A stretch of 64,000 nucleotides of DNA from Anaerolineae bacterium (GCA_027021705.1 JALUTT010000117.1:39099-103098); one strand, 5' to 3'; shown: positions 35,812-54,000, counted from the stretch's first letter. Notes: generated by a model from the sequence alone, not told the origin. A program made the numbers and translations.

Positions 35812-36030
35812 TCAAGGGGCAAGGGGCAAGTTGCAAGTTGCAAGTTGCAAGGGGCAAGTTGCAAGAGGCAAGGGCTGAGGGCTGAGGACCGAGGACTACC
35901 CGACCACCTGACCACCTGACCACCCGACCAAGCGACCAAGCGGCCCGGAGACCACGGACCGAGGACTGAGGACTCTAGCGTGCAAGAATCAGACCAGCAG
36001 ACCACTGGACCACTGGACCATTAGACCACT
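35812..36030. repeat. Compound short tandem repeat block (CAAGGGG/CAAGTTG, CTGAGGA, GACCACCT/GACCACTG)
   Basis: Successive 7-mer and 8-mer tracts abutting the last CRISPR repeat. Confidence 0.9.
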
Positions 36031-36031
36031 G

Positions 36032-39000
36032 CGGTTCACCCCCACGTGTGTGGGGAAACGCTATGCCTCTGCAGCCTGTGCGGAGTTGGGCTCGGTTCAC
36101 CCCCACGTGTAGGGAAACGAGGTGCGACGCACTTTGGAAGTGCGTCGCACCTGGTTCACCCCCACGTGTGTGGGAAAACGGCAGACCTCGAGGACGCTGG
36201 GAAACACCCACAACGGTTCACCCCCACGTGTGTGGGGAAACGGAAGAGGTCATCATCAACGGCCCCGACAACATCGGTTCACCCCCACGTGTGTGGGGAA
36301 ACGTACCGCATCCACGAAGGCACTAGAGCTGCTATACGGTTCACCCCCACGTGTGTGGGGAAACGGCAGACCTCGAGGACGCTGGGAAACACCCACAACG
36401 GTTCACCCCCACGTGTGTGGGGAAACGTTGCCCAGGATTCCCTTGGCCGAGCTTGTCGCCGGTTCACCCCCACGTGTGTGGGGAAACGCCGAATGGGATC
36501 ATCGCCGTTGCGCCATTCGGCGGTTCACCCCCACGTGTGTGGGAGACGCTCGCCGTTTTACGCTTCACGCTTCACGCTTGCGGTTCACCCCCACGTGTGT
36601 GGGGAAACGTGCTCGCGCAGTTGAGCCAATTTGCGACGTACGGTTCACCCCCACGTGTGTGGGGAAACGGCCTGATGCCCCCCGCCCAGATCGTGGATCC
36701 CATCCGGTTCACCCCCACGTGCGTGGGGAAACGGGGCACGTAAAGGACCCTGTTGCCAAGCGTGCCGGTTCACCCCCACGTGCGTGGGGAAACGGGACAG
36801 GGAGGCGGCCGAGGCGGCGGGCTGTTCGGTTCACCCCCACGTGCGTGGGGAAACGGGGACCACCCGCGTACCGCCGGCCTGATAGGGCGGTTCACCCCCA
36901 CGTGTGTGGGGAAACGCCATCTGGCCGGCCGCCTGTGACGGACCGGCGCGGTTCACCCCCACGTGTGTGGGGAAACGCCCCCGGCCCCCACTAGTGCGGC
37001 CTTTCTCAGCGGTTCACCCCCACGTGTGTGGGGAAACGTCCCAGGCCCGCGTGGGCACGGAGAGGGCCCGCGGTTCACCCCCACGTGTGTGGGGAAACGG
37101 AGCCCAATCGGGAATCGGCATATTCCGAATCGGTTCACCCCCACGTGTGTGGGGAAACGGCATCAGGATCCCGGATGAGGGCGAGAGCTGCCGGTTCACC
37201 CCCACGTGTGTGGGGAAACGGCTCTGATGCGCCATATCATTTGCTCCTCCCTCCGGTTCACCCCCACGTGTGTGGGGAAACGGTCAGCAATACACTGCCT
37301 CGCCAATGCAAGTGCGGTTCACCCCCACGTGTGTGGGGAAACGGAATGTCTCAAGATCCACAGGGATCTCAACCCAGGTTCACCCCCACGTGTGTGGGGA
37401 AACGGACCTGGAGACCGGCGAGGAGACGACGGCTCACGGTTCACCCCCACGTGTGTGGGGAAACGTCAACTTCCTCCCCACCGATGCGACCCACAGCGCG
37501 GTTCACCCCCACGTGTGTGGGGAAACGGGCAGGAAGTCGGCGGGCCGGAACGGCCGTGGCGGTTCACCCCCACGTGTGTGGGGAAACGTGGGTGTGTATG
37601 GTGGGCCGGTGCGGGCATCCCGGTTCACCCCCACGTGTGTGGGGAAACGGAGGAGGGAAACGATGCGAATCAACTGGGGAGCGGTTCACCCCCACGTGTG
37701 TGGGGAAACGCCCATCCGACCTCTTTTTCCTCGATTGCGAGGCGGTTCACCCCCACGTGTGTGGGGAAACGTCCAACGCCTTGGCGCTCATCCTGGGGTT
37801 CTACGGTTCACCCCCACGTGTGTGGGGAAACGGTTGCACCCGAGGAGGCCCTGGAACGCCTTGCGGTTCACCCCCACGTGTGTGGGGAAACGGTGCAGGT
37901 GCGCTGCATATCGGTCCTGATACCCCGGTTCACCCCCACGTGTGTGGGGAAACGTTCTGCCGTTGTCCCCGTACCTGCGGCGTGATACGGTTCACCCCCA
38001 CGTGTGTGGGGAAACGTTGCTCACTCTCCACGTAGCGTCCACCGGTGACGGTTCACCCCCACGTGTGTGGGGAAACGCCACGGGGCACCATCACCGGCCT
38101 ACGGGTTTTCGGTTCACCCCCACGTGTGTGGGGAAACGGTGGGGGCTGTAGCACCCCCTCGGGGAGGGGCGCGGTTCACCCCCACGTGTGTGGGGAAACG
38201 CCCCCATAAATCGGCTCAGGCGCTCCCGCTGCTGGTTCACCCCCACGTGTGTGGGGAAACGCTTGGTAGCGGCGGCCTCCGACCCATTTCCAGACGGTTC
38301 ACCCCCACGTGTGTGGGGAAACGCTGGCCGGATGCCACGAACCGCCACTCGATGTTCGGTTCACCCCCACGTGTGTGGGGAAACGGGCCTGGACCTCGGT
38401 TTGGTGGGCTGGACCCTCGGTTCACCCCCACGTGTGTGGGGAAACGGGCGAGGGCGATGATGAGGCCCTGGATGATTTCGGTTCACCCCCACGTGTGTGG
38501 GGAAACGGGGCTCGTTAGTAATCGTTAACGCCATTTTTACGGTTCACCCCCACGTGTGTGGGGAAACGTTTCTCCGCTGGAGCCGTGACACCGATGCCTA
38601 CCGGTTCACCCCCACGTGTGTGGGGAAACGGAGACCTAGCGACCTCAGAACTGTACACCCCCCCGGTTCACCCCCACGTGTGTGGGGAAACGCTCAGGTC
38701 CGCCGGGGGCGGGGCTGGAGGATGCGGTTCACCCCCACGTGTGTGGGGAAACGGGTGCTACCCTATGTCTACCGGGCTGAGGTCTTCGGTTCACCCCCAC
38801 GTGTGTGGGGAAACGGGAGGTGTGTGATGAAAGAATATCTCGATCTGCGGTTCACCCCCACGTGTGTGGGGAAACGTCATTCCGGGTGTCCATATCGGGC
38901 TAGGGTTTCGGTTCACCCCCACGTGTGTGGGGAAACGCTGAGCAACATCCCCTCTGCGTGGACGGATTCGCGGTTCACCCCCACGTGTGTGGGGAAACGT

Positions 39001-40903
39001 CATACCGTCTCTGGTCTTACAGCAGGACAGGTCGGTTCACCCCCACGTGTGTGGGGAAACGGTATACGGCACGCCGACGGGGAAGACAAACCCCGGTTCA
39101 CCCCCACGTGTGTGGGGAAACGCAAGGTGCCGTCTACCAAACCGGAGCGCAGCGCGGTTCACCCCCACGTGTGTGGGGAAACGGCCTGCGCACGCGGATC
39201 GAGCTCTTCCGTAGCAGGTTCACCCCCACGTGTGTGGGGAAACGTCCCGTGGCGTATAGGCGTATCCCGCGATATACCGGGTTCACCCCCACGTGTGTGG
39301 GGAAACGTTCGCAAGCCGGAGGCTGGAGGGTTAAAGGCGCGGTTCACCCCCACGTGTGTGGGGAAACGGCATCTCCTCAGCATTGGAAACCAGACCCATC
39401 GGTTCACCCCCACGTGTGTGGGGAAACGTCTGGGTCTGTGCAAATGAAAATCCTTGTCATCGGTTCACCCCCACGTGTGTGGGGAAACGTCTTGATTTCT
39501 CGGGTGGCCATCGTTTCCCTCCTGGTTCACCCCCACGTGTGTGGGGAAACGCGTAGTCCTCGCTGCTCGTAGACGGAGCGTTGCGGTTCACCCCCACGTG
39601 TGTGGGGAAACGGGCATTCAGCCGCGATTGCTCCTGAAATGCCTCGGTTCACCCCCACGTGTGTGGGGAAACGGTTGAGCACCAGGTTCAGAAGATCATA
39701 CTTTCCGGTTCACCCCCACGTGTGTGGGGAAACGTTATCACTGATGCCGGAGTAACCATCTTGCCGTCTGGTTCACCCCCACGTGTGTGGGGAAACGGGC
39801 GGTAAAACAGATGGTCGGCATAACTGTCTCCGGTTCACCCCCACGTGTGTGGGGAAACGTCGTCGTTCCATCCTGGGCGTGGTGATGAGCGCGGTTCACC
39901 CCCACGTGTGTGGGGAAACGGTCGAGAGCACGCATCACGGCCTTGTAGGCCCCGGTTCACCCCCACGTGTGTGGGGAAACGGTGGATTTGTCCGAGGAGG
40001 AAGAAAGGCTTATCGGTTCACCCCCACGTGTGTGGGGAAACGGCGGTTCGACGATGTGAGGCGCACCGAGATTCGGTTCACCCCCACGTGTGTGGGGAAA
40101 CGGATCCACCCGCCAGAAGATGCCGTCTCCTTCCGGTTCACCCCCACGTGTGTGGGGAAACGTGAGGAGATTCATAGGCTCGACGGCACGTATGCGGTTC
40201 ACCCCCACGTGTGTGGGGAAACGTCACACTCCACTCGACGGCAATATACCGCAACTGCGGTTCACCCCCACGTGTGTGGGGAAACGTGGCCTCTGTCGGC
40301 GAACCCGTCAAGGCGCTTAGGTTCACCCCCACGTGTGTGGGGAAACGTGTGTCCAGCGCATTGCGGACTCTTAGGGAGTCCGGTTCACCCCCACGTGTGT
40401 GGGGAAACGGGGAAATCGCGCCACGCGAGGCCAGCAGTACACGGTTCACCCCCACGTGTGTGGGGAAACGGGACACAATGGCTCGCCCTCAGATTCTTTG
40501 GTTCGGTTCACCCCCACGTGTGTGGGGAAACGTGGCCATTGCTATCCTTCAGCTTCGCAATCTGCGGTTCACCCCCACGTGTGTGGGGAAACGGAGTGCC
40601 TTCCTCCGGGCGCTCGGCTACCAGCGGTTCACCCCCACGTGTGTGGGGAAACGGAAAACGATCTGGCCGCTGCTGGTCATGCTGTCGGTTCACCCCCACG
40701 TGTGTGGGGAAACGGGGAGACACGACGCAGCTCAGCGATCTCTACTACTCGGTTCACCCCCACGTGTGTGGGGAAACGGAAAACGATCTGGCCGCTGCTG
40801 GTCATGCTGTCGGTTCACCCCCACGTGTGTGGGGAAACGGGGAGACACGACGCAGCTCAGCGATCTCTACTACTCGGTTCACCCCCACGTGTGTGGGGAA
40901 ACG
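36032..40903 (-). CRISPR. Type I-E CRISPR array, 80 repeats and 79 spacers by manual count
   Basis: 29-nt repeat CGTTTCCCCACACACGTGGGGGTGAACCG on the minus strand (I-E-like hairpin and 8-nt handle); spacers about 31-35 nt; degenerate repeats at the 36.0-36.6 kb trailer end; variable terminal base as expected for the PAM-derived nucleotide in I-E. Confidence 0.98.
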
Positions 40904-40955
40904 GCTTGATACTCCTCCTGCATGATGGGAATTCTAGACAATTTTCTGTGCTCCA
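40904..40955 (-). promoter_or_regulatory. CRISPR leader (very short)
   Basis: AT-richer 52-bp gap between the cas2 stop and the first repeat. Confidence 0.6.
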
Positions 40956-41240
40956 TCAGTCGGTTTTTGAGCTCACACGGATCAGTTGTAGTCCATCGAA
41001 GTCCACTACCGTCCGCTGAGATGCTCCGGCGACCCGCATCTGCAGACGTTGCTCGTTGTTCGTGTTCCACGCCTGGAAGACGCTGCCGGTTCCTCTCGCC
41101 TTACAACACTTCTCCCACAACCGATCCCGCACCATCGCGTTGACGTGACCAACGAAGACGCCAGGATGCGGCTCGACCAGCCAGCGCGTTAGCTCACCCC
41201 GCAGCGAAGTCGGCACCCGTTCCAGGATCATCACGACCAT
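40956..41240 (-). CDS. cas2: Type I-E Cas2
   Basis: MVVMILERVPTSLRGELTRWLVE..PGVFVG, NNEQ, VDFDGLQL. Confidence 0.95.
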   Translation of the reverse strand: MVVMILERVPTSLRGELTRWLVEPHPGVFVGHVNAMVRDRLWEKCCKARGTGSVFQAWNTNNEQRLQMRVAGASQRTVVDFDGLQLIRVSSKTD

Positions 41241-42159
41241 CTCCCCCTCCTTCAACCTGCAGGCCGGACGGTGGAGACCAAAGGGGCTCCGGCCGCGCAG
41301 GATCGCTATCCGCCTCCCGCCCAGCCATCAAGACTTCCTCCGGCACATCCAATAGGTGCTCGATGTCCGGCAGGATGCGTTGTATCAACCGGTGCTCTTT
41401 GAAAGCATGCCTGCAGGCACGACGGACACGTGGTCCTAGCTCCTCCGTAGATTCGGCCACAATCCGAAAAGCCAGCGGAATGGTCACCTCCACCTTGTAC
41501 AGATCGGCGATGTCGTACACAAACGAGAGTTGCTTGCCCGTGTGGATGAAGCCGATGGCCGGCGAGTAGCCGCCCGAGACAATGGCCGCGTGACACAGCC
41601 CGTTGAGCAACGCATGGGCCATCGAAAGGGCTCGGTTCACCGGGTCGCCGCTGTTCCAGTTCCGCCGGTCGTACCGCCGCCCATGCCAGGGCACCCCGTA
41701 GGTCCGACTGGCCTCGGCATAGGCTTCGCGCACGCGCACCCCCTCGAGCCCCCGGATCTGCTCCAGGCTCAAGCCCGGGGCCAGCGACTCCTGGAAGCGA
41801 TACCGGTACATCCGCAGCACGACCTCTTTTCGCGTGCGCGGATCGCTGGCCAGCCGGGCCTGATGGAGCAGGTGGTACGCCCGCCGGGTTTCACCACCCC
41901 CTTGGGCATAGCACCGGGTACCCTCCTCGCCGCACCAGACGATCAGGCAGCCGTTGTTGGCCAACGCTCTGACGGCCGCATGGGTGATGGTGGTGCCCGG
42001 CCCGAGCATCAACACCCCCAGTGCAGCCGCCGGGATCATCGTGCGCCCGCTCGCATCCACGAACTCGACCGCTTTGTACCGCTGCTCGATGCGGCCATGC
42101 TCCAGGTAGAGGAAGGAAAGCCCATCCCGAAACTTGGGCAGTTCATGCAGATCGCGCAT
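41194..42159 (-). CDS. cas1: Type I-E Cas1
   Basis: LMLGPGTTITHAA, QIRGLEG.RVR, GFIHTG, SFVYDIADLYK. Confidence 0.97.
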   Translation of the reverse strand: MRDLHELPKFRDGLSFLYLEHGRIEQRYKAVEFVDASGRTMIPAAALGVLMLGPGTTITHAAVRALANNGCLIVWCGEEGTRCYAQGGGETRRAYHLLHQARLASDPRTRKEVVLRMYRYRFQESLAPGLSLEQIRGLEGVRVREAYAEASRTYGVPWHGRRYDRRNWNSGDPVNRALSMAHALLNGLCHAAIVSGGYSPAIGFIHTGKQLSFVYDIADLYKVEVTIPLAFRIVAESTEELGPRVRRACRHAFKEHRLIQRILPDIEHLLDVPEEVLMAGREADSDPARPEPLWSPPSGLQVEGGGDGRDDPGTGADFAAG

Positions 42160-42265
42160 CTTGCACCTCCTGAGACCCATAGATGCGGTTGTTAAGGTGC
42201 AAACCCGGGCTTGCACGTTACGGGGAACGGGGCGCCAGACCGCTCCCAGCACTCACCTCGCTCGA

Positions 42266-42907
42266 TCAGACCCTCGGACGGGCCAGGGAAAGCAGCCCGA
42301 AGCCCAGCGCCTTCCCGCTGCCGATGCCTCGGCGCACGGCCTCCCACAGCCGATCCGGATCGGTCACTTCCAAGAACCCATCGAACTGCACGGAGAGCAT
42401 CCGCAGCCGGTGGGTGGCCCCATCTCGATGGATTGTCCCCTCGACCAGCCGCTGCCCTCCGATCCGGGCCGCCAGGACCCGGAAACCAGCCTGCTCCGCC
42501 TTGCGCAGGAGCCACTCCCGTTGTTCTTCCTCCCTGTAGAGGCCCAGCCGCTTGCCGTTCCGCTTGACGGTCGGGTTAGCCCGCAGCCGGAAGACCAGCA
42601 CCTGACCGGGAGCCAGCCGCAGGTCGAAGGACTTGACCGCCGGGTTGGGCTCATCCACCGGCAAGAGGTAGCCTCGCGCTCCCGGCTCCGCCAGCCACGA
42701 CCAGTTGGGAAAGGTGTGCGACTGGACCAGGAGGACGAAGGCGTTCAGCCGGGGATGGTCCTCCAGCCGGAAGAGCACCCGCTCCTCCCCCGGCTCCAAG
42801 CGGTCGGGAAAGGCCCGCATCAGGCTGCGGTGCATCTGGTACAGGTCGGCTACCTCCCGCTGCACGCGGCGGTTGCGAGGGTTCAGGATCAGTCGGGAGA
42901 GATACAT
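42266..42907 (-). CDS. cas6e: Cas6e (Cse3/CasE)
   Basis: MYLSRL, YQMHR, FRLRANP, GIGSGKALGFGLLS Gly-rich loop. Confidence 0.96.
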   Translation of the reverse strand: MYLSRLILNPRNRRVQREVADLYQMHRSLMRAFPDRLEPGEERVLFRLEDHPRLNAFVLLVQSHTFPNWSWLAEPGARGYLLPVDEPNPAVKSFDLRLAPGQVLVFRLRANPTVKRNGKRLGLYREEEQREWLLRKAEQAGFRVLAARIGGQRLVEGTIHRDGATHRLRMLSVQFDGFLEVTDPDRLWEAVRRGIGSGKALGFGLLSLARPRV

Positions 42908-43587
42908 ATCCCTTCCTCCTCTTCTCTCAAAGGGGGAGCCGGGATGAACAGGGTCCGAACGTAACGGGGGGCAAACCGCCGATCATCGGGATCGAAGGAG
43001 AGGGGCTGATCCGGTCGCACCTCCGGCCCGTCCGGGTCCTCGATCACCAGCCGCACTTGCTGGGGACGCTTCTCCGGGTCACAGCCCAGCCAGGGGTAGG
43101 TGCGGAAGGCCGACATCAAGTCCTCGCCGGGCCGCAGGCCGTCCTTCAGCCAGACCGGCTCGCCGGGCACGAAGGCCCTGCGCCCCAGGTAGAGGGGCCA
43201 GACCGGGTTCCGCAGGGCAGCGTGGAGCCGGGCCAGCAGGTCCAGGTCCTCCCCCTCCAGCCCCACCAGGAAGCGGGCATCGGCCAGGTAGTAACGGGTG
43301 GAGACCACCAGGCGATCCTTGTCCACCCGCCCATCGGCCTTCAGGATGCCCCCTTTGCCGGCTGTGTGGAAGTCCCGCGCGATCACCCCTTCCTGGTCCA
43401 CCCGTACTCCCATCCGCAGCCCCGCCAGCTCGGCGATCGGCTCGTCCCGGCGACGCCCCTGGGCGGCGCAGAGCAACCCCACCACGCCGCTCTTGGAGGG
43501 CTCCAAGCCGGTATCCCGCTCGGTGAAGCGGCTCTGCACCCCCCACGACTGCATCGGGCCGACCAGGCGCAGGAGCAGGACGTTCAT
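42889..43587 (-). CDS. cas5e: Cas5e (CasD)
   Basis: LRLVGPMQSWG, PSKSGVVGLLCAA.G, RYYLADA, LYLGRR. Confidence 0.96.
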   Translation of the reverse strand: MNVLLLRLVGPMQSWGVQSRFTERDTGLEPSKSGVVGLLCAAQGRRRDEPIAELAGLRMGVRVDQEGVIARDFHTAGKGGILKADGRVDKDRLVVSTRYYLADARFLVGLEGEDLDLLARLHAALRNPVWPLYLGRRAFVPGEPVWLKDGLRPGEDLMSAFRTYPWLGCDPEKRPQQVRLVIEDPDGPEVRPDQPLSFDPDDRRFAPRYVRTLFIPAPPLREEEEGICISPD

Positions 43588-44708
43588 GCCACCGCCTCCT
43601 CCGCCGGCAACGCCTCCACCACGGCCCGCACCCATGCCTCCAGGTCCGCCACCTGGGCCTCCTTCAGGTGATCCAGCGGCAGATCGGGGTCTAGCGCCAG
43701 GGCAGCGGTGCGGATCAGGGTGTCGGTGCCGTAGACGCGACAGAGCTGCCCCCAGTAGGCATCCAGTGCCGCCACCGAGGGGGTCACCAGCCCGGAATCC
43801 CGACTTGGCCGGACCGGGCGCTCGAAGGCGTTGACCAGCGACCAGCCCATCCCATCCCGGCGGACGACGGCGAGCAGGAAACTGGGCGGGTTGTGGGCGG
43901 CGAAGGCGTTCTGCTTGCCGGAGGGGACGGCAGCGACAGCAGCTCGGAGGAACGCCTCAACGGTACGTTGGGCCAACGCCTTGTCATCGTTGAGGTTTTT
44001 CACCAACTGATCCCAATCCACGCGGGCATACCGGTAGAAGCAGGCGCTGTTGAAGCCGGTGAACCCCATCATCCCCGCCCCGGTCTCCTCCTCTCGGGAG
44101 AGGTCGTCCACAGCGGTGAAGAAGTCCATCTCCATCGCGACCCGATGGGTGGAAATGGCGTGGGCCACTTGGCAGGCGGCCTCCAGGTTGAGCTCCGGCT
44201 TCTCGGCCAGCATGCGGCCAAAGAGGGCGATGTCGGGCGCACCGGTGTGGCCTTTGTGGGCTTTGATGAGGTCTTTGACCAGCTTCTTCATCACCCTCTC
44301 GTCCGAGAGGCGATCCCAGTTGTCGAGCAGAGCCTGCACGATGTCGGCGATCTCGCCCCGGCTGAGATAGAACAGGACCTTGGTGCGTTGGCCGTCTTTG
44401 TCCAAACCGCCGGCATACTGCGGGACGAATTCCTGCAGAATGGCGGTAGCCTCCTCCTCAGGCTTCCCGGCCTCGACCAGGTGACCCCTCAGGAGGCGGA
44501 CGAGCCAGCGGGTGCGGGTACCCACGGCCACCCTGGTGGTCTCGGTGAAGACAGGCGAGGTGCGGATGGCCCGCTTGATGCACTGGGAGGAGATGCGGGC
44601 CCGGCGGACACCGCCGAACTCGCAGTCCTTGGGGTTGTTGGTGTCGTCCCGGTTCAGGTTGGCCGGGGCGAAGTTCTGGATCATATGCACTTCGATGTAC
44701 ATCTTCAT
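43584..44708 (-). CDS. cas7e: Cas7e (Cse4/CasC)
   Basis: NLNRDD..NPK, RARISSQCIKRAIR, IALFGRM, DFFTAVDD, PSGKQN. Confidence 0.96.
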   Translation of the reverse strand: MKMYIEVHMIQNFAPANLNRDDTNNPKDCEFGGVRRARISSQCIKRAIRTSPVFTETTRVAVGTRTRWLVRLLRGHLVEAGKPEEEATAILQEFVPQYAGGLDKDGQRTKVLFYLSRGEIADIVQALLDNWDRLSDERVMKKLVKDLIKAHKGHTGAPDIALFGRMLAEKPELNLEAACQVAHAISTHRVAMEMDFFTAVDDLSREEETGAGMMGFTGFNSACFYRYARVDWDQLVKNLNDDKALAQRTVEAFLRAAVAAVPSGKQNAFAAHNPPSFLLAVVRRDGMGWSLVNAFERPVRPSRDSGLVTPSVAALDAYWGQLCRVYGTDTLIRTAALALDPDLPLDHLKEAQVADLEAWVRAVVEALPAEEAVA

Positions 44709-45211
44709 CCCTCCTTTGTCCTCTGGTTCTGGGTGGAGCGGCCCCAGAAGGCGCTCGCCCACTGCCGCTGTACATATCGGTCTGGGTGCCCCCAGGCCAG
44801 CACGTCTTGTAACAGTTGATGCCAGTTGATCGGCACCTCCTTCGATCTGAGGAAACCGACCGCCTGCCGCAGGTAGACGTCCAAGTCGTCTGGGTGAGCG
44901 GCCAGGAGGACGGTGAACCGCCGCTCGATGGCGGTGTTTTCCCCCTGGGGATCCCGGGCCTGGGCAAAGTGATGGCCCATATTGCCGACGCCCCCGGGGG
45001 CAGGGTGGTAGGCGAAGAGGGAGGCAATGAGGTAGTAGGCCCTTTCCTTCCAGGGGGTGTCGTCTGAAAGCCACGGGACCACGTAGGGGTACATCTCGGC
45101 GACGGTGCCGGGCGGCCGGCCCAGCCCGCGCCGGAGGGCGGCCAGCGCGGCTCGGTCCTCGCGCTCACGCAAGCCCTCCAGGTAGGCGACGAACGATTGC
45201 TCTTTTGTCAT
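44705..45211 (-). CDS. casB: Cse2 (CasB/Cas11)
   Basis: AALAALRRGLG, IERRFTVLL, INWHQLLQD, QWASAFW; position in the operon. Confidence 0.93.
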   Translation of the reverse strand: MTKEQSFVAYLEGLREREDRAALAALRRGLGRPPGTVAEMYPYVVPWLSDDTPWKERAYYLIASLFAYHPAPGGVGNMGHHFAQARDPQGENTAIERRFTVLLAAHPDDLDVYLRQAVGFLRSKEVPINWHQLLQDVLAWGHPDRYVQRQWASAFWGRSTQNQRTKEG

Positions 45212-45234
45212 CAGAACCTCCTTCGCTCCTCGCA

Positions 45235-46755
45235 TCACGACTCGGGCAACACCTTGAGGAGGCCGGCGGCCAGTTTCCCACGGGCGCGGACCACCGCCTT
45301 GAGGGCGCGGGGATCGTGGCTCAGGCCGTCGGCCACTCGCTCGAAGGCCCTCCAAGCCGTCTGCCGCAGCACCTGGCGCCACACCTCCAGCGCTCCCTCC
45401 TCCTCCTTCGGCAAGGACTCCACCAGCGTGCGGAAAGGGAGCTCCAGCCGGGACCAGTAGAACCGGTCTACGGCCCACTGGTTCATCAGCCTATCCAGCT
45501 CCTTCCGATCCGGTTGGCGGCCCTCTTGCGCATCGGCCTCGGGCGAGAGGAGGAGAGTCGCCAACGTGCGCACCGCCCCCCAGAGCTGACGGGAGGCCCC
45601 TTCGGCCATCTCCAGCGCCTCGCTCAACCCCTCCACCAACGCCGGCTCCCGCAGGTAGCGCAGCGGCAGAGGCATCCGCTCGCTGCGGTAGAAGTGGACC
45701 TTGGCCTGGCCGGGCACGCTAGACATTCCCATCGCCAAATAACGGCGAGTCTGCGAAGGGTCCAAGTAACCCTCTTCAATTAGCGTAGCCAGCCAGTAGA
45801 AAGCGAGTGGCGGACGATACCCCTCACTCCGCAACTGAAAGAGGGCCGCGCTGTCCCGCCACAAGGCTCGCTCCGCAGTAAACAAGAGCGGCAGCGGCCC
45901 GCGTTTCTTGTCTTGGAAGTAGTGTTTCATCGGATCAAGAACGCCAGGGGCCAAACGTAAGGCTGGAGCCATCGTTGCCTTTCGCACGATAATATCACCG
46001 CCGGTTCCTTCGGGTAGCAGTAAGATGCGCCGGTTCTGCCAGGTGAGATAGTCCAGATACCCGTATGGTTTGGCGCGATCAGGCGTAAAGGGATCTTCCA
46101 TCTCCCACGCCGGACGATCCTTAGACGGATCATCCCCTATCATGTCCCTAGGGGGGCGTATCAGGTTGAGAGCTAGGGTTTCGAACAATGTCCTACCTTG
46201 TACTAGGAAAATGACGCCACGCGCCCAGGGAGCATCGGTGAATTGCATCGTTGGGCCTTTCGTCCCGCACAGCCCAAACGCCTGCACAGTGACAAGCACC
46301 CGTGCGGCCTGCGCCGGGCTAAGAGCGATACCTTCTACCTCAGTATGGTGGTCGAACAGAGTAGGATTGTTGCCGGAGGCGACCTCGTGGATCAAGCGGT
46401 TGAGCGGTTTGGGCTTCACCCGCTCGTCGGGAGCCTGGTAGAAGGGCCTCTCCGGATGGAAGAGGTCGAACCGATCGCGCCAGCGGTTCAGGTAGTCGTC
46501 CAACCGGGCCGGGTCCCAGCGGCCCGCCTCCCAGAGACGGCCCCACTCACCGAGGGAATCCGGTCCGAAGACGCGGTGCAGCACGGCCAGGAGCAGCCGG
46601 TGGAGCGCTGCCGTCACCAGGGGGGATTCCCCGTGGATCTCGCGCAGTTCGTGGGCCTGGGCCAGGGCGTCCCGCAGCCCCAACTCCACCAGCGTTCCAT
46701 CGGCTCTCAGACAGGGGATCCAGGGGGAACGTAGCAAGTCGAAGGACGGGTTCAT
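45235..46755 (-). CDS. casA: Cse1 (CasA/Cas8e)
   Basis: FDLLRSPWIP, RFDLFHPERPFYQ, LFDH, GRTLFETLALN, YLTWQNRRILL, ALWRD. Confidence 0.94.
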   Translation of the reverse strand: MNPSFDLLRSPWIPCLRADGTLVELGLRDALAQAHELREIHGESPLVTAALHRLLLAVLHRVFGPDSLGEWGRLWEAGRWDPARLDDYLNRWRDRFDLFHPERPFYQAPDERVKPKPLNRLIHEVASGNNPTLFDHHTEVEGIALSPAQAARVLVTVQAFGLCGTKGPTMQFTDAPWARGVIFLVQGRTLFETLALNLIRPPRDMIGDDPSKDRPAWEMEDPFTPDRAKPYGYLDYLTWQNRRILLLPEGTGGDIIVRKATMAPALRLAPGVLDPMKHYFQDKKRGPLPLLFTAERALWRDSAALFQLRSEGYRPPLAFYWLATLIEEGYLDPSQTRRYLAMGMSSVPGQAKVHFYRSERMPLPLRYLREPALVEGLSEALEMAEGASRQLWGAVRTLATLLLSPEADAQEGRQPDRKELDRLMNQWAVDRFYWSRLELPFRTLVESLPKEEEGALEVWRQVLRQTAWRAFERVADGLSHDPRALKAVVRARGKLAAGLLKVLPES

Positions 46756-49700
46756 TCCACCTCCTTTTCGATCGTCAAGCCCAGTTCTCGGCTCAGCCGG
46801 AGCGCGTAGCGGGTGTCGGGGAGCGAGCAGAGGCCGTCTTCGAAGATGAGCACCCGATGGTGGCGTAGCAGAGGGTGGTCGCGCCATCCAGAGGGACCCG
46901 GCTGTTTCAGGAGATGCTGCACAACCCCTTGATGGGTGATCCTAAGTGTATACTGCCCCACCAGCCGTGTCAACCCCCGATCGGGCTCCTGATCCAGGTC
47001 CACCGCCGGTCCACTCCCGTCCGGCTCTAGGGTCAGTCCGACGGCCGTGCGGTGCAGGCAGACGACGGGCAGGCCGGGAGGGCCGGAGCGGGTGAGGGCC
47101 TGGAAAGCCCGATGGACCTCGGGGTTCTCCTCCTCCAGCAGCGCGGTGGTGCTGGCAAGAAGCCCCTCATCGTCGGGGGGAGGGATGAGGCGTTTTTGGG
47201 CCTCGTAGACCCCCTCTTGGTAGTGTTTCTCCATCCGCTGCCGAGCCTCCTCCAGTGCGTCCGCGATCCTATCCGGCAGGTCTGAGGGCAGACCGTCTTC
47301 GTCGCCATAGACGGCCTCGATCAGCGGCTCGGTGTCCTGGGGAAGGACCAACCCCTTCCGCCTCTGAAGGGCCAGGAAGGTGCGCAGCAGGACGTAGGGT
47401 TCGTACACGTAGGCATCCGGCCCGAAGTGGGGAACACCGTCCTGGACGTCAGGGCGGGCGATCAGGAGGCGGGGCGCGGTGAGGGGAGCAGGTCGCCCCT
47501 CCCGGGGGTGGCGATGCAGCCGTCCGGCCCGCTGGAGCAAGAGGTCGGCGGGGGCCAGGTCGGTGATCATCAGGTCGAAGTCCAGGTCCAGGCTCTGCTC
47601 GATCACCTGGGTGGCGACGACGATGGCCTTGGCAGGCCGCTTCCCATCTTTGCCGAAGCGGTCGAGGACTTTCCGCTCGATCTCGTCCCGCCAGGCGGAG
47701 GGGTAACGGGCGTGGAAGAGGATCAAGTCCTCCTCCGGCACGATGCGGGCCTCCTTGATCGCCCGATAGACCTCTTGAGCCCGCCGGACCGTATTGCAAA
47801 GGACGGCGGCACACCCTCCTTCGCGCAGCTCCTCGGCCAGGCGACGGGCAAGGGCCTCGGGCTCCCGCTCGACCCACTCCAGCGCGATGGTGCGACCATC
47901 CGTCGCCTCCAACGGCACGACGCCGATCTCTCCCTCCATCGCCCAGGTGATGGCCGGGTAGGAGACTTCGGGCACCTCGGAGACACCGGCATAGGCCCGG
48001 AGCAGTTCGCGCCGGGCGCGGGCAGGGAGCGTGGCCGAGAGGATGACGACGGAAGCGCCGACGGCCCGCAGCCAGGTCAGCAGCCGCCGGAACAGGGTGG
48101 ACATATAGGTGTCGTAGGCGTGGACTTCGTCGAAGACGACGGTCTTGTGGCTGAGGCCGAAGAGGCGGACGAAGAAGTGGCGGGTTTGGAGCACGCTCAG
48201 CAGGGCCTGGTCCACCGTGCCGACGCCAAAGGGGGCCAGCAGGGTACGCTTGCGGGGGAGGAACCAGGTCAGCGCGGCTACTTTGCCCTCGTCGCCCTCC
48301 TCCAGCTCGTCGGTGGTCTCCAGGAGCAGCGTCTCCACCTCCTCCGACCAGCGGGCCTGGCTGTGGACCAGGTGGAGGTTGACCAGGCGGTCTGGATAGC
48401 GTCGGACCAGCACCTCCTTCACGCGGCGGAAGATCTGGTTGCTGGTGGCCATCGTGGGCATGGCGACGTAGAGGCCCCGCTGCTGGAGGACCCGCGCCCA
48501 GTGATCGGCCAGGTAGAGGGCAGCTTCCGTCTTGCCGCTGCCTGTTGGGGCCTCGATGATGACCAGGGCGGGGCGGTTCAGCCGTTTCGCCAGCTCCACG
48601 ACCGCCTGCTGCATTGGACGGGGCTTCAGTTGGAAGAGTCGGTCGAACGAGGCAGGCTCTGCGGGCGGCTGCCACCCAAGCCATCCCAGCGCCTTCAGCG
48701 CCTCTCGGGCCTGCTCTTCCGCCTGCTCCGTGTAGCGGTCGAGGTCAACCGGCGGGTCCACGTAGGGGAAGAACCGCTCCATCGAGCCGATCCAGTCGGC
48801 GACGGTGGTGAGGCCGGAGAGGAGGGTCAGCACAGCCTGCTCCTTCTTCGGAGAGGTCTCCAACCCCTTCACAGCGGGCGGCTTGAGCTGTTGGGTCATC
48901 GCACGCACCAGATCGCGCCGGACCTCATCCCATCCCTCTCCCCCCACCTGTTTCGAGAGGAGGCGCTGCAACGCGAGGGACGAAGGCCAGGCCCCGTGGT
49001 GGCCGCCCACGCTTCGGGCGAGCCGCCGGGCCGGACGGCGGGGCAGACCGATCTCGGCTTCCAGGAGGTCTCCCAGGACGTGCGCGGAGATCGTTCCGTG
49101 GGGAGGGTGTTTGGCCGTGAACTGGCGAGGGAAGGGGAGACCGTCACGCTCCAGCGGCTTGACGGCGGGGGAATACAGCCGCTGGAAGGCGGGGCTGGCC
49201 TTGCCGATGTCATGCAGGCCGGCCAGGAGGGCGAGGAACCGCCCGGCCTCTCCGACACCCAGGCCCATTGAGGTGGCGATCTGGTCACGAAGACCGGCGG
49301 TGAGGGCCTCATCCCACAGCGCCAAGGCCACCACGGCCACATCGAGCATGTGGCAGATGAGGGGATGGGTGCGGGCCTTGCCCTTGTCGGCCTTGGCCCA
49401 CAACCGCTGGTAGGTCGGTATGGGCTGGATGCCGTAGAGGTCCGCCATTCTCTGGACCTCGTTCATCAGCGCATCCCGCAGCTCCTCCGGCGCTATGACC
49501 TCCACGTCCGCCCCCCAGCCTCGGATCCAGGGGAGCATCTCCTGCGGCTCGGCCACCCGGGCCCGCCAGAGCAAGCTCCCGTCCGGCTGCTCCTTCACCT
49601 GCTCGGACCGATGCCAGCGGGTCTCACGCACCCGATGGGCCACTCGCGGGTGGAAGCGGAGGACGACTTCCACAGGCTCCCTCTCGGTGTACCAGATGCC

Positions 49701-50402
49701 CCAGGCGTCGGCCAGATGTTGGCGGGGGTCGAAGTCGGGGGCGATCTCGTAGGACTCGTCCAGCTTCTCAATGCGCCGAATGCGCTCGATCTTGAACGTG
49801 CGCAGCGCTCCCGGTGGCTCCCGCCAGCCGATGACGTGAGTCGTCCGCCCCACCGGGTAGGGTTCGATGAAGTAGGGAGCGAAGACGTACTCGTAGACCT
49901 GCTTCGTCTCCTCGTGCCAGTGCCATATCCGCACCTTCCGCCGCTCGGACCAGGCGCGGGTCAGCGTTTCCAGCACCTGCATGTACACCGGATCGTCACG
50001 GCGGGCTGCTTCGTCCATCACATCGGCGGAGCGCTTCAGGTGCTCGCTGATCAGAGGGGCCAGCTTTTCCAGGGCGATCCCCAGCTTGCGCAGGGCCGAG
50101 GCGGCGTGGGGATTATGCCGGTCGGTGCGGGTCGCCATCATCCGGGCTGCCAGGTGAAGGGCCATCGCCTCGTGGAGGGTGAAACGGACCTGGGTCAGGT
50201 AGTGATCCCGATCTATGGCCAGCCGTCCATCATCGGTCTCGTAGACGGCGAAGCGATCGAGGTCGGGCAGGTAGCGGTGGATGGTCGAACGGTGTACCTC
50301 CAGGCGTCGGGCGATCTCCGCCTGGGTAAGCCCCTCCGGATGGGCCAGCAGGAGCGCTTCGATCTGCAACAGCCGTTCGGCCTTTCCGACAGCTCTCGCC
50401 AT
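46752..50402 (-). CDS. cas3: HTH-WYL-WCX regulator fused to Cas3 (HD nuclease plus SF2 helicase), 1216 aa
   Basis: About aa 1-325: HTH (LTQAEIARRLEVHRSTIHRYL), WYL (PYFIEPY, LRTFKIERI), WCX (WIRGWGADVEVIAPEELR). Then LWAK, HMLD, HDIGK, HHG, ADWIGS (HD) and APTGSGKTE, DEVH, SAT, QRAGRLHRH (helicase) in one continuous ORF. Confidence 0.93.
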   Translation of the reverse strand: MARAVGKAERLLQIEALLLAHPEGLTQAEIARRLEVHRSTIHRYLPDLDRFAVYETDDGRLAIDRDHYLTQVRFTLHEAMALHLAARMMATRTDRHNPHAASALRKLGIALEKLAPLISEHLKRSADVMDEAARRDDPVYMQVLETLTRAWSERRKVRIWHWHEETKQVYEYVFAPYFIEPYPVGRTTHVIGWREPPGALRTFKIERIRRIEKLDESYEIAPDFDPRQHLADAWGIWYTEREPVEVVLRFHPRVAHRVRETRWHRSEQVKEQPDGSLLWRARVAEPQEMLPWIRGWGADVEVIAPEELRDALMNEVQRMADLYGIQPIPTYQRLWAKADKGKARTHPLICHMLDVAVVALALWDEALTAGLRDQIATSMGLGVGEAGRFLALLAGLHDIGKASPAFQRLYSPAVKPLERDGLPFPRQFTAKHPPHGTISAHVLGDLLEAEIGLPRRPARRLARSVGGHHGAWPSSLALQRLLSKQVGGEGWDEVRRDLVRAMTQQLKPPAVKGLETSPKKEQAVLTLLSGLTTVADWIGSMERFFPYVDPPVDLDRYTEQAEEQAREALKALGWLGWQPPAEPASFDRLFQLKPRPMQQAVVELAKRLNRPALVIIEAPTGSGKTEAALYLADHWARVLQQRGLYVAMPTMATSNQIFRRVKEVLVRRYPDRLVNLHLVHSQARWSEEVETLLLETTDELEEGDEGKVAALTWFLPRKRTLLAPFGVGTVDQALLSVLQTRHFFVRLFGLSHKTVVFDEVHAYDTYMSTLFRRLLTWLRAVGASVVILSATLPARARRELLRAYAGVSEVPEVSYPAITWAMEGEIGVVPLEATDGRTIALEWVEREPEALARRLAEELREGGCAAVLCNTVRRAQEVYRAIKEARIVPEEDLILFHARYPSAWRDEIERKVLDRFGKDGKRPAKAIVVATQVIEQSLDLDFDLMITDLAPADLLLQRAGRLHRHPREGRPAPLTAPRLLIARPDVQDGVPHFGPDAYVYEPYVLLRTFLALQRRKGLVLPQDTEPLIEAVYGDEDGLPSDLPDRIADALEEARQRMEKHYQEGVYEAQKRLIPPPDDEGLLASTTALLEEENPEVHRAFQALTRSGPPGLPVVCLHRTAVGLTLEPDGSGPAVDLDQEPDRGLTRLVGQYTLRITHQGVVQHLLKQPGPSGWRDHPLLRHHRVLIFEDGLCSLPDTRYALRLSRELGLTIEKEVE

Positions 50403-50501
50403 AAGCTCACTCTCCTTTCTGAGGACTGCGCATCCTTGTTGCCAGGCACCCCCATTATACCATCAGTACCCACGGAATTCCGCAACAGGTGAGCAGGAAT
50501 T

Positions 50502-50714
50502 TCACTTCTTGCGCCTGCGAAACAGGCTCAGGAACCCTCTCTCGTCCTCCATCAGCAGCGTGCCCCGCTCCTCCAACGCCGGCAGGTCCCGTTGCACCGT
50601 CGAGCGGGGAACCCCGAGCAACCGTGCCAGATGGCTGGGACGGATACCGTCGGGGTATTCGGGGATCAGCTCCTCGTAGCGGTCCAGGCGTGCGCTGTTC
50701 GGTTTGCGCCCCAT
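50502..50714 (-). CDS. Small winged-HTH protein, paralogous to the HTH of the WYL-Cas3
   Basis: PDGIRPSHLARLLGVPRSTVQRDLPALE...EDERGFL vs PEGLTQAEIARRLEVHRSTIHRYLPDLD...ETDDGRL; SD GGAGGTGG. Confidence 0.8.
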   Translation of the reverse strand: MGRKPNSARLDRYEELIPEYPDGIRPSHLARLLGVPRSTVQRDLPALEERGTLLMEDERGFLSLFRRRKK

Positions 50715-50758
50715 TGTCCACCTCCATCGGTCGGATTTGCCTCCATCCTACCGATGGG

Positions 50759-50779
50759 GTGTTGCACCTACCGCAACAC
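50759..50779. promoter_or_regulatory. Candidate operator palindrome
   Basis: GTGTTGC-N7-GCAACAC about 45 bp upstream of the small HTH start. Confidence 0.45.
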
Positions 50780-50806
50780 GTGCCAACGCCCGGCGCACCG
50801 AGGGGG

Positions 50807-50983
50807 GCAAGGGGCAGGGGGCAAGTTGCAAGGGGCAAGGGGCAAGGGGCAAGGGGCAAGTTGCAAGTTGCAAGGGGCAAGGGGCAAGGGGCAAGTTGCA
50901 AGGGGCAAGTTGCAAGAGCTGAGGACTGAGGACCGAGGACCAAACGACCACCTGACCACCCGACCACCCGACCACCCGACCAC
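50807..50983. repeat. Compound short tandem repeat block, same unit order and orientation as 35812-35940
   Basis: (CAAGGGG/CAAGTTG)n, then CTGAGGA/CCGAGGA, then (GACCACCY)n. Confidence 0.9.
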
Positions 50984-51098
50984 AAGAACCTTCCCCCACC
51001 GGCGAAAATGGTGTAAAATCAAGGCAGCAGTCGGCACGCCCGACGGCGCTCTCTCCCTACCGCGAAGGCGCGGGAAACGCCGCGAGGAGCACCGTGCA

Positions 51099-54000
51099 AT
51101 GGACCCCACCGACTTTTTGGGGAACCTGGCCGCAGAGGTGGCGGCGGACCTGGTGGGGCGGATGCTCTCCGCCCTGGGCACCGCCCTGCGCGGCACCCCC
51201 CAGGAGCAGGCCCTGCGCGAGGCCTACGCCCAGGCCATCGCCGCTTTCCCGGCCTGCTTGGAAATGCCGGAGGAGCCGGGGATCCGCCAGGTCTGGCAGA
51301 CATACCTGAAGCCCTTCTTCGACGATCCCCGGGTGCAGAAGGCCCTGACCGAGCTGGTGCTTTACGAGGGCCGGCCCGAGGCAGTGGACTTGGCCCCCTT
51401 CCGGGCTGCCTGGGCCGAGCACTACGGCCCCGGCGCAGAGGCCACCCTGCCTTGGCGGGAAGGGGAGAGCCTGGAGACGGCGATCCGCGCCTTCGCCCGC
51501 GCCTTCGAGCGGGAGGCCGAATCCCGGCCCGATCTGCACACCTTCCTCATCGCCGCCCGGCTCAAGCGGGTCGTGGACCGGCTGGAGCGGGGGGTGCCGG
51601 TCGAGGGGATGGAGGCCCTGCTGGCTGCCGTGGGGCGGCTGGCCGACCGGCACGACCAACTCCTGGCCCTCTTCACCCACCTGGCCCGGATGGGCTACGG
51701 CGTGCGGGTGGGAGGCGACGTCACGAACAGCGTCCTCATCACCGGAGACAACAACCAGGTGGTCGTAGCCGACCGGGGACTGCTCGCCGGCCTTTTCCAG
51801 GCCCTGCCCGACCGGGAGCGGATGCTCACCGAGTACCGCGCCCACCTCCGCCGCACCCACGCCCTCCTCGACCTCCGAGGTCTGACCCTTCCGCAGATCC
51901 ACGGGAAGCCCCTGGACCCCACCCTGGTGCGCATCCCCCTGGACCGTGTCTACATCAAGCTGCGGGCACTGCCCCGCCAAGAGCAGCCCGAGGCCCCGCC
52001 CCCGCCCGACGACGCCGAGGCGATCGCCCGCTACCTGCGAGCGCGGCAGAGGCCGGTGGAACGCCCCTTCGGCGAGGAGGCCGTTCCACCGGAGCAGGCG
52101 GTGCAGGAACATCCCACCCTGGTCATCCTCGGCGATCCCGGCGCGGGGAAGTCCACCTTCCTCCGCCACTTGACCTGGGTCGAGGCGGCCGGGGGGAGAG
52201 CCCTGCCGCTGCTGGTCCCCCTCGGCCGGGTTGACGTGGCGATGGCAGGGGTCCATTCCCTGGTGGATGCCGCCTTGGACGTCCTGACCGCCCACAAGGC
52301 CGGGGGGGAGCGGGACCGGTTGCGAAGGGTGCTGGAGGAGGAGATCAACGCCAAGCGGGTCCTGTGGCTGCTGGACGGCCTGGATGAGGTGCGACAGCAC
52401 CGCAGCGAGGTGGTGGAGGGCATCGCCGGACTGATGGCCGACGGACATCGGGTGGTGGTGACCTCCCGCCCGGTGGGGTATGAGATGATCCCCGGCTGCG
52501 ACACCCTGTACCACGTGCTACCGCTCCTCCCGGAGGACGCCCGGTCCTTTGTAGACCGCTGGTTCATCGCCCTGGCCGAGGCCCAGGGGGTGCCGGAGAG
52601 GGAACGGGAGCGATGGGCCCAGGAGCGGGCCGGGTGGCTGAGGGAGCAAGTCGAAAGCCGCCCCGGCCTGCGGGAAGTGGCTCAGAACCCGCTGATGCTC
52701 ACCTTCCTGGCCGTGCTGGCGGGAGATGAACCGAGGGAGGAATTCCCACGCCATCGGAAGGACCTCTACGCTCGGTACGTGGACCGGCTCGTCACCACCT
52801 GGGAGATCCGACGGCGAGGAGGGGAGGGGGTGTCGCTGCTGGAGGGGATCGCGGACCCCCACGAGGCGCGGGAGGTGGCGTTGTGGGGGTTCGAGCGGGT
52901 GGCGCTTCACCTGCACCGGGCCTACAGCGGACGGCCCGGGGAGGCCATCCGCGACAGGGTGAGGGCCTATCTGGCGGGACAACTGGCGCAGGCGACGGGG
53001 GCAAGCCGCTTCCGGGCCAACGGGTGGGCCAAGGCGATCCTGGATTTCTGGGAGCGGGCGGGATTGCTGGACCGGTATCCGATCCGGGGGCAAGAGTGGC
53101 TGGCCTTCCGACACCTGACCTTCCAGGAATACGGTGCCGCCCGCGCCCTGGCCGAGGCCCACGGGGGCGACCCCGACGGTCTGTGGGCCGAACTGGAGCC
53201 ACACCTCCTAGAGGACGAGTGGGCCCAGGTCATCCCCCTGGCGCTGGCCCAGTTACAGGACGCCACGCCCCTTCTGGAGCGGCTGCTGGAGGCCGACGGC
53301 GAGGACGAGGCCCGCCGCCGGCCCCTCTTCCTGGCGGCGGCGGCGATGGCGGAGGGGGCCGTGGCGGAGGATGGAGTGCGATGGCGGGTGGTGGACGGCC
53401 TGGAGCACCTGGCGCGAACGCGGGATTGGTGGGAATGGAGAAGGGCGAGTGCCTCTGATGCGCTGGCCGCGCTGGGTCGGATGGAAGGGGACCCCTACGC
53501 TGCCCGGCGGCTCCTCGCCCTGGCCCTCGACGAAAGCGTGGATGCCCGGGTGCGGGTGAACGCCGCCAGGGAGCTCGGCCGGCTGGGCCGGGCCGACGAA
53601 GCTGCCCCCATCCTCCTCGCCCTGGCCCACGACGAAAGCGTGGATGCCCGGGTGCGGGTGAACGCCGCCTGGGCGCTGGGCCGGCTGGGCCGGGCCGACG
53701 ACCTTCTGGCCCTGGCCCGCGATGAGGACGTGGATACCTGGGTGCGGAAAGAAGCCGCCAAGGCGCTGGGCCAACTGGGCCGGGCCGACGACCTTCTGGC
53801 CCTGGCCCGCGACGGAAGCGTGGATGTCTGGGTGCGGGAAGAAGCCGCCGAGGCGCTGGGCCGGCTGGGCCGGGCCGACGACCTTCTGGCCCTGGCCCGC
53901 GACGGAAGCGTGAATACTCGGGTGCGGGTGAACGCCGCCGAGGCGCTGGGCCAACTGGGCCGGGCCGACGACGCTGCCCCCATCCTCCTCGCCCTGGCTC

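Follow-up and report, generated by a model that had tools for sequence, protein, structure and literature searches.

We describe a regulator-Cas3 fusion protein encoded in a 64 000-nucleotide stretch of DNA from an Anaerolineae bacterium (GCA_027021705.1, JALUTT010000117.1:39099-103098; hereafter the window, with positions counted from its first letter). At 46752..50402 on the minus strand, open reading frame (ORF) listing and translation give a single ATG-started ORF of 1216 aa with no interruption. Its N-terminal part matches Pfam models for a winged helix-turn-helix (wHTH; residues 9-48, HTH_IclR at 28.8 bits with a cut-off of 22 and HTH_11 at 28.6 bits with a cut-off of 25), a WYL domain (32.8 bits, cut-off 21.8), and a WCX domain (75.1 bits, cut-off 23.9), and the remainder matches Cas3_HD, DEAD, Cas3-like_C_2, and Cas3_C, each of these models scoring over its curated cut-off (Table 1). 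On the same strand and 3′ of cas3 follow Cse1, Cse2, Cas7, Cas5, Cas6e, Cas1e, and Cas2e, for which the I-E models (Cas7e and Cas5e included) all score over cut-off; judged by these profile matches, cas3 is the first enzyme gene of a complete type I-E operon.

The HD nuclease domain is covered by Cas3_HD (PF18019) at model positions 1-207 of 207 (170.4 bits, cut-off 23.1, E 6.6e-50) and by TIGR01596 of NCBIfam (86.9 bits, cut-off 43.45), and the helicase core is matched by TIGR01587 (235.4 bits, cut-off 102.45), PF22590 (134.5 bits), and PF18395 (44 bits, cut-off 27). Alignment with the solved Cas3 4q2c extends over residues 4-882 of the 886 in the Cas3 part (E 4.7e-198), with the HD and helicase blocks shared and the GSGKT and DEVH motifs of the translation both aligned; 4qqw and 6c66 match at E ∼1e-103. 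The Escherichia coli-centered I-E equivalog NF007248 (PRK09694) gives 427.7 bits, under its 569 cut-off. By motifs and by alignment to solved Cas3, this part of the protein appears catalytically intact. The type I-E Cas3 structures (4q2c/4q2d, which we take to be from Thermobaculum terrenum, and 4qqw and 6c66, presumably from Thermobifida fusca) have HD, RecA-like, and C-terminal domains that are all present here, but those proteins have no N-terminal regulator.

The fusion is a genuine single polypeptide. The region was found in hydrothermal-vent metagenome runs, with no RNA run among those listed for 49000-50900. Contigs of three further runs (X2, 49000-49480; X3, 49034-49877; X4, 49000-49999), from two studies of which neither produced the possible source run (X1), span the junction at 49380-49460 with zero gaps. 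They differ there by substitutions only: 49403 A>G, synonymous at Leu334, and 49385 T>C, giving K340E. When residues 1-560 were searched against a 5.8-billion-protein collection, 676 proteins of 668-2128 aa matched; WCX and Cas3_HD occur together in 120 of the 120 relatives among the matches listed, query coverage being at least 97% in 116 of them and 84-93% in four. These results bear out much of a first-pass annotation of the window, made by a model from the sequence alone, which had proposed a true fusion in one 1216-aa ORF, with a complete HTH-WYL-WCX regulator, a short linker running into LWAK (placed here at residues about 321-334), an intact Cas3, and a position for cas3 at the head of a cse1-cse2-cas7-cas5-cas6e-cas1-cas2 operon. 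It had also suggested mapping reads across the junction, where the contigs of the three runs have no indel.

Table 1. Features of the fusion gene, its control region, the operon, and the CRISPR array (window positions)
Feature	Position	Strand	Basis
wHTH-WYL-WCX regulator and type I-E Cas3, single ORF	46752..50402	-	ORF calling, Pfam, NCBIfam
Winged helix-turn-helix (residues 7-63), recognition helix around R38-S39-T40...R43	50214..50384	-	Pfam HTH_IclR/HTH_11, AlphaFold2 model
Helical bundle from wHTH to WYL (helices 76-92, 98-110, 116-132, 138-152), core of predicted dimer interface	49947..50177	-	AlphaFold2 model
WYL domain (residues 142-212), K204 and R207 invariant, R201 nearly so	49767..49979	-	Pfam PF13280, alignments
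WCX domain (residues 242-320)	49443..49679	-	Pfam PF25583, 75.1 bits
Short linker from WCX to Cas3 N-terminus (LWAK), residues 321-334, about 12 residues	49401..49442	-	Translation; 4q2c alignment begins at LWAK
Cas3 HD nuclease domain (residues 335-545)	48768..49400	-	Pfam Cas3_HD, TIGR01596, 4q2c alignment
Cas3 superfamily 2 (SF2) helicase core and Cas3_C (DEAD 596-796, Cas3-like_C_2 862-967, Cas3_C 1105-1209)	46776..48617	-	Pfam, NCBIfam, 4q2c
Perfect palindrome TGTTGC-N7-GCAACA, 19 bp, candidate P1 operator	50760..50778	.	Unique in window and genome, conserved
Putative P1 -10-like hexamer TAGGAT, 9 nt past palindrome	50745..50750	-	TAnnnT conservation, alignment A2
Inverted repeat/hairpin, spacer and -10 region paired with Shine-Dalgarno region of small gene	50722..50759	-	Folding per locus
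Small 70-aa winged-HTH gene, paralogous to wHTH of fusion	50502..50714	-	Pfam HTH_IclR 1.7e-5
Putative P2 half-site TGTTGCGGAATTCC	50474..50487	-	Conserved TGTTGC[AG][GT]
Putative P2 extended -10 TGgTATAAT, 22 nt past TGTTGC	50454..50462	-	Spacing conserved
GCAACA half-site past P2 -10	50437..50442	-	Partly conserved
cse1/casA	45235..46755	-	TIGR02547 4e-64; start overlaps cas3 stop (ATGA)
cse2, cas7, cas5, cas6e, cas1e, cas2e (individual starts approximate)	40956..45235	-	Profile matches
CRISPR array, 78 repeats	36033..40903	-	Orientation from 3′ handle of repeat and variant-repeat position

The fusion is common in Chloroflexota. Relatives of residues 1-560 were retrieved from 202 species in one-genome-per-species collections, and the best 80 of the 202 are almost all Chloroflexota metagenome-assembled genomes; among 401 sampled genomes of the phylum (a tally that includes the three unpublished genomes G038, G173, and G272), 197 match at E up to 1e-10, mostly through free-standing WYL regulators. 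To 110 loci (L002-L111, our own locus included; L004 and L094 are the same in sequence) we assigned an arrangement using phmmer against six-frame ORFs, with Cas3 types confirmed on examples by Pfam and NCBIfam. The regulator is fused to an I-E-type Cas3 in 25 loci and to a second HD-first Cas3 of ∼1075-1190 aa (“cas3B”) in 20. As a separate gene it lies directly upstream of a helicase-first Cas3 with a C-terminal HD domain in 29 loci, upstream of an I-E Cas3 in 10, and upstream of the second Cas3 type in 2; a further 12 loci have no cas3 within reach, 9 are cut by a contig end, and 3 have no full WYL match. Counted over the 107 WYL loci, cas3 is fused to the regulator gene or directly downstream of it in 86. 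The first-pass annotation had left the frequency of true fusions to a count of fused and split homologs; 45/107 loci are fused and 41/107 are split. The two Cas3 kinds other than I-E match generic Cas3 models only in NCBIfam, the best specific model being that for type I-G Cas3g, under its cut-off. A search with the N-terminal module only gave a similar view: 30 of the best 150 representatives of 50%-identity clusters are at least 1000 aa long, and these contain Cas3_HD in 25 cases and Cas3-like_C_2 (E up to 1e-12) in 4 more, while Cas3_HD is present in 6/9 mid-length representatives. New here is that one regulator module, fused in some loci and encoded immediately before cas3 in others, occurs with three Cas3 architectures.

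Fused and split forms are intermingled in the module tree. Mapped on 105 modules, fused versus split status cannot be explained with fewer than 20 changes; 17 are required for the I-E-fused rows, and well-supported branches force at least 12 of these. The tree comes from a quick search with support from the Shimodaira-Hasegawa-like approximate likelihood ratio test only, a midpoint root, and some long branches. The module of the window is nearest (81%) to a separate gene beside a different Cas3 type. Repeated fusion and fission on the one hand, and module swapping between operons on the other, are alike compatible with this tree, which cannot tell them apart.

The architecture itself is not new, having been catalogued in 2014, and is found here on an I-E Cas3. 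Makarova et al. (PMC4012209) noted that some type I systems have a fusion of WYL and Cas3; among the clusters in their supplement is “HTH+WYL+HD+SF-IIHelicase”, with six proteins of 904-1084 aa, from three Meiothermus species, Treponema caldaria, Anaerolinea thermophila UNI-1, and Roseiflexus sp. RS-1. That cluster has the same domain order as our protein, a WYL regulator before Cas3 HD and SF2 helicase, and includes Chloroflexi hosts; its members are by length like the “cas3B” fusions, whereas ours has 1216 aa, an I-E-type Cas3, and an I-E operon around it. For this architecture, the 2014 treatment amounts to one sentence and the list, with no operator, partner gene, or experiment. In the literature that we searched, subscription journals being outside its coverage, we found no functional study of a WYL-Cas3 fusion, no paper joining WYL, Cas3, and Chloroflexi, and no fusion under compound names such as WYL-Cas3. 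WYL genes beside cas3 are known, as the first-pass annotation had stated; examples with the WYL gene directly upstream, the arrangement of our split loci, are the Serratia I-E* locus (PMC9981886) and a cyanobacterial I-D regulator (cited in PMC11237760). These two are likened to the present case by gene arrangement, but they encode separate polypeptides. With the architecture in print since 2014, the surprise for specialists is modest: the fusion is part of a large, catalogued family, here with its own conserved control region. We also observed a fused locus (L105) in a spirochaete-labelled bin, the record being titled uncultured Treponema sp.; it fits the Treponema caldaria protein of the 2014 list, and the fusion is therefore not confined to Chloroflexota and Deinococcota.

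An AlphaFold2 model of the N-terminal module, built on 72 modules, has a predicted local distance difference test score (pLDDT) of 91.2 and a predicted template modeling (TM) score of 0.81, and comprises the wHTH, a helical bundle, a WYL barrel, and WCX. In Foldseek, DriD (8tp8) comes first (E 2.6e-18, TM 0.56-0.59), together with DriD-RNA polymerase complexes, and PafBC is next (1.5e-12); BrxR (8.5e-8) and CapW (2.7e-7) are far behind, the entries for these two ranging from 8.5e-8 to 2.6e-6 with TM 0.29-0.34. The best sequence matches among solved structures are likewise 9pfq (3.4e-15), an entry titled as a complex of DriD with RNA polymerase, and 8tp8 (4.1e-15). A three-helix bundle is described as the mark of WYL activators, as opposed to the BrxR/CapW repressor class with its helix-beta-hairpin (PMC10853764). 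The bundle is present in our model, with a fourth helix in addition to the three (Table 1), and neither a linker of the BrxR/CapW helix-beta-hairpin type nor the repressor fold is seen in the modeled module. On this modeling, the module is of the DriD/PafBC activator class and DriD-like.

The module is also predicted to dimerize. Homodimer prediction gave an interface score (ipSAE) of 0.74 in the median run (runs 0.72-0.74) versus 0.00 for the best of three controls, with at least 95% of contacts agreeing between runs and a partner pLDDT of at least 82; the mark applied to this score is reached by 20/30 proteins solved as pairs and by 1/23 solved as single chains. The predicted interface consists of residues 65-131 and the final pre-linker residues 309-325, and both Cas3 bodies would therefore exit the dimer near its axis. 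In the putative ligand pocket, we mapped the single-stranded DNA (ssDNA) contacts of DriD (PMC10853764) onto the module, and of the eight positions so mapped, four are conserved in character both here and family-wide (R204 to R201, W206 to F203, R207 to K204, and Y240 to W237). Fused modules retain R38 of the recognition helix in 43/44 cases, R201 in 40/44, K204 in 44/44, R207 in 44/44, and W237 in 43/44; split forms are alike, with R38 in 37/41.

Among characterized regulators, DriD of Caulobacter crescentus (8tp8, 7tzv, 9pfq) is the best match in both structure and sequence, sharing the order of wHTH, helical bundle, WYL, and WCX, the (here predicted) homodimer, and several ssDNA-contact positions. 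It differs in being a free-standing 327-aa regulator of a DNA-damage regulon, ∼23% identical to the module, which here is fused to a nuclease-helicase. PafBC (6sj9, 7p5x, 9fnd) is likewise a WYL activator that replaces -35 recognition and is the second-best structural match, but it consists of two WYL proteins, as a heterodimer or fused in tandem, its site is non-palindromic, and its regulon is large (PMC10853764). BrxR and CapW (7qfz, 7t8k, 7tb6, 9c5g) resemble the module as wHTH-WYL regulators of defense systems; they differ in belonging to the repressor class, and their match is much weaker (E ∼1e-7).

Upstream of the fusion gene lies a candidate two-promoter control region enclosing a small wHTH gene, neither of which figures in the first-pass annotation; the stretch that the annotation had proposed for a DNA-binding assay, 50403-50800, does contain a candidate operator palindrome (Table 1). 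This palindrome lies 45 nt 5′ of the start of the small gene and has its sole perfect copy, for both the window and the 5.19-Mb genome, at this place. With up to one mismatch tolerated, it precedes the small gene in 66/68 loci and the WYL gene in 14/34 loci without the small gene, occurs in 0/306 coding control windows, and is kept in 20/22 evaluable I-E-fused loci. Further regulon targets were not apparent in the genome, where copies with one mismatch occur at 4 other places, fewer than for a reversed-pattern control (15 hits per strand); with one perfect site, the module appears to control its own locus only. The sequence TAnnnT follows exactly 9 nt past the palindrome in 63/66 loci, T29, A30, and T34 of alignment A2 being (nearly) invariant, and a scan of 40800-51100 found no -35 element or canonical sigma-70 promoter in the control region. 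At DriD-activated promoters, the DriD site overlaps the place where a -35 would be and keeps a constant distance from the -10 (PMC13004042), and the candidate promoter P1, by comparative sequence, shares this geometry: a palindromic site at the -35 position, a fixed -10 distance, and no -35.

The small wHTH gene stands directly 5′ of the WYL(-cas3) gene in 71/107 loci, irrespective of Cas3 type or fusion state and in most of these 72-170 nt from it, and it is similar to the module in its recognition helix. A second putative promoter, P2, in which TGTTGCGGAATTCC is followed by TGgTATAAT, lies between the small gene and cas3. In 57/71 loci, versus 2/284 controls, the pattern TGTTGC[AG][GT] occurs no more than 130 nt before the WYL gene, and TGTTGC is spaced from the -10 by 22 nt in 53/69 loci, with 9 others at 21 nt; 22 nt is also the P1 spacing (7+6+9), placing both half-sites in the same register. 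Among the 64 loci with a P2 -10, 16 have GCAAC past it and 18 have a direct TGTTGCRG.

Between the palindrome and the start codon of the small gene, the sequence folds as a long hairpin, with z < -2 in 61/66 loci and a median of -5.4, each sequence being folded alone; the shuffles were mononucleotide, which makes these values somewhat generous. Sequences vary among loci, and the pairing is kept. RNAalifold on alignment A2 returned the palindrome only, with no covariation, as expected for a protein site, and missed the downstream hairpin through indel misalignment. Rfam gave no family at E up to 1 within 50300-51100. We conjecture that transcripts from P1, starting past the -10, would lose the 5′ arm of the hairpin, and that the ribosome site would be masked in read-through transcripts. 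The cassette of palindrome, promoter without a -35, hairpin, and small wHTH gene appears to be undescribed in the searchable literature.

Our best reading, to which we give a probability of about one half, is that the fusion is a Cas3-borne autoregulator, probably ssDNA-sensing and probably activating, as suggested by its likeness to DriD and by comparative sequence. The N-terminal module would dimerize, and its wHTH would bind the palindrome at P1 and the same-register TGTTGC half-site at P2, as their conservation suggests. A nucleic-acid ligand in the WYL/WCX pocket, most likely ssDNA if the likeness to DriD holds, would switch DNA binding on, and the bound module would help RNA polymerase onto the -35-less promoters, raising transcription of the small wHTH gene, of cas3, and of the cas genes that follow. 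Because Cas3 itself produces ssDNA, the outcome would be a feed-forward loop in which interference or DNA damage yields ssDNA and hence more Cas3 and Cascade. The fusion would fix regulator and Cas3 at 1:1, set the sensor beside the ssDNA-producing enzyme, and make Cas3 dimeric; since fused and separate forms interchange freely in evolution, the two probably function in a similar way. Lacking sensor and dimer domains, the 70-aa paralogous wHTH probably recognizes the same half-site and modulates the circuit.

Several points weigh against this activating, ssDNA-sensing autoregulator. The dimer prediction may reflect likeness to solved WYL dimers, and a dimeric N-terminal module may be hard to reconcile with Cas3 docking on Cascade. 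The residue mapping to DriD comes from a phmmer alignment covering residues 184-321 only. Within it, DriD R189 corresponds to R186 here and mostly to Q in relatives, Y192 to H189 and R288 to Q287, neither conserved, and the WYL motif is degenerate (T-H-V). We infer the promoters P1 and P2, their transcription starts, and the direction of regulation from sequence, and the palindrome could be bound by either wHTH protein. Repression, too, can be exerted from a site over the -35 position, and the tested WYL regulators adjacent to defense genes are repressors: BrxR and CapW are so described (PMC10853764), and the cyanobacterial I-D regulator is cited as negative (PMC11237760).

These last precedents speak for an autorepressor, in which the palindrome-bound module covers the -35 position and keeps RNA polymerase off until ssDNA or another oligonucleotide releases it, de-repressing the cas operon and freeing Cas3. 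The palindrome overlaps the promoter core, as such a mechanism would have it, and the second half-site at 50437-50442, past the P2 -10, is at a position typical of repression. Against this, the modeled fold with its helical bundle is of the DriD/PafBC activator class, with Foldseek E-values of 1e-18 for DriD as compared to 1e-7 for BrxR and CapW, and both P1 and P2 combine the lack of a -35 with an exact distance from operator to -10, as at DriD-activated promoters. Given this fold and a palindrome that occupies the -35 position at a fixed 9 bp from the -10, as at DriD-activated promoters, activation by the ligand-bound form is at least as likely as release. We therefore regard autorepression as somewhat unlikely, though a serious contender, and the proposal of the first-pass annotation that Cas3 is held at its own promoter as a repressor until ssDNA releases it is not well supported by the modeled fold and the site geometry.

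Alternatively, WYL and WCX could form an ssDNA-binding or gating module that alters Cas3 loading, processivity, or nuclease activity, any transcriptional role being secondary or vestigial. The linker of about 12 residues would hold the WYL/WCX pocket beside the HD domain, the C-terminal residues of the module (309-325) are at the predicted dimer interface, and repeated fusion suggests physical cooperation; moreover, the WYL domain of a PIF1 helicase has been described as an accessory ssDNA-binding module (bioRxiv 10.1101/163188). Yet the recognition helix and operator are equally conserved in fused and split loci, which would be unexpected were DNA binding vestigial, and in half of the loci the regulator is a protein of its own. 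As a full account of the fusion we find this enzymatic role unlikely; it can, however, coexist with the autoregulator explanation. Finally, an artifact, in which assembly or frameshift error joined adjacent WYL-regulator and cas3 genes, has almost no likelihood and was rejected: split relatives with overlapping or abutting frames do occur (e.g. L011, L072, and L083), so that a single indel could interconvert fused and split forms, but the gapless junction contigs from two other studies, the 120 listed relatives, all fused, and the counts of loci fused to I-E and other Cas3 types all oppose it.

A wider version of the autoregulator reading, which we hold to be doubtful, is that the locus exemplifies a portable control cassette for type I CRISPR-Cas in Chloroflexota, fused to or fronting at least three Cas3 architectures and making interference self-amplifying. 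Its parts would be the operator, the -35-less promoter, the hairpin acting against the Shine-Dalgarno region, the 70-aa wHTH, the same-register second promoter, and the DriD-like WYL sensor. If this were true, ssDNA from Cas3 or from infection would convert the sensor on Cas3 to an activator of the operon that encodes it, the small wHTH, having no sensor, would compete for the half-site and set the threshold, and the hairpin would restrict translation to transcripts begun at the regulated promoter. How type I CRISPR-Cas is switched on during infection is poorly understood beyond a few model organisms, and a Cas3 that carries its own transcription factor, one that would sense nucleic acid, is a natural experiment in tying expression to what the effector does. 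With both fused and split forms recurring in one family, and with a sharply defined operator, the question is directly testable; the family also offers a second, defense-linked example for testing the DriD-type mechanism of activation.

At the other end of the operon, the variant repeats of the CRISPR array sit at its 36-kb end, and the leader therefore adjoins cas2 with the whole locus co-directional. The leader-proximal end of the array contains a perfect 125-nt tandem duplication (40625-40904, 2.2 copies, 100% match), so two spacer-repeat units are exactly repeated. Two array intervals (36061-36152 and 36489-36581) have repeat-to-repeat gaps of 92-93 nt, about double the normal length, probably through the loss or decay of a repeat at the old end.

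Divergent from the CRISPR-cas control region is a giant ORF (50592-56903, plus strand) in which an NNH2 NACHT-N-terminal helical domain and a NACHT ATPase are accompanied by a HEAT-like repeat of 102 nt (34 aa), present in ∼32.7 copies at 53511-56770. It has weak NCBIfam matches to the NACHT antiphage proteins EruA and HyoA and is probably a defense candidate of the NLR/STAND type next to the CRISPR locus. Since the stretch 50804-50983 consists of tandem-repeat DNA, the ORF is likely to have its true start far downstream of 50592. Both ends of the CRISPR-cas locus are flanked by the same short tandem repeats (GGGGCAA heptamers and CGACCACC-type octamers), at 50804-50983 and 35813-36031; contig depth jumps ∼40-fold and contigs break at these flanking repeats, which are therefore high-copy in the metagenome.

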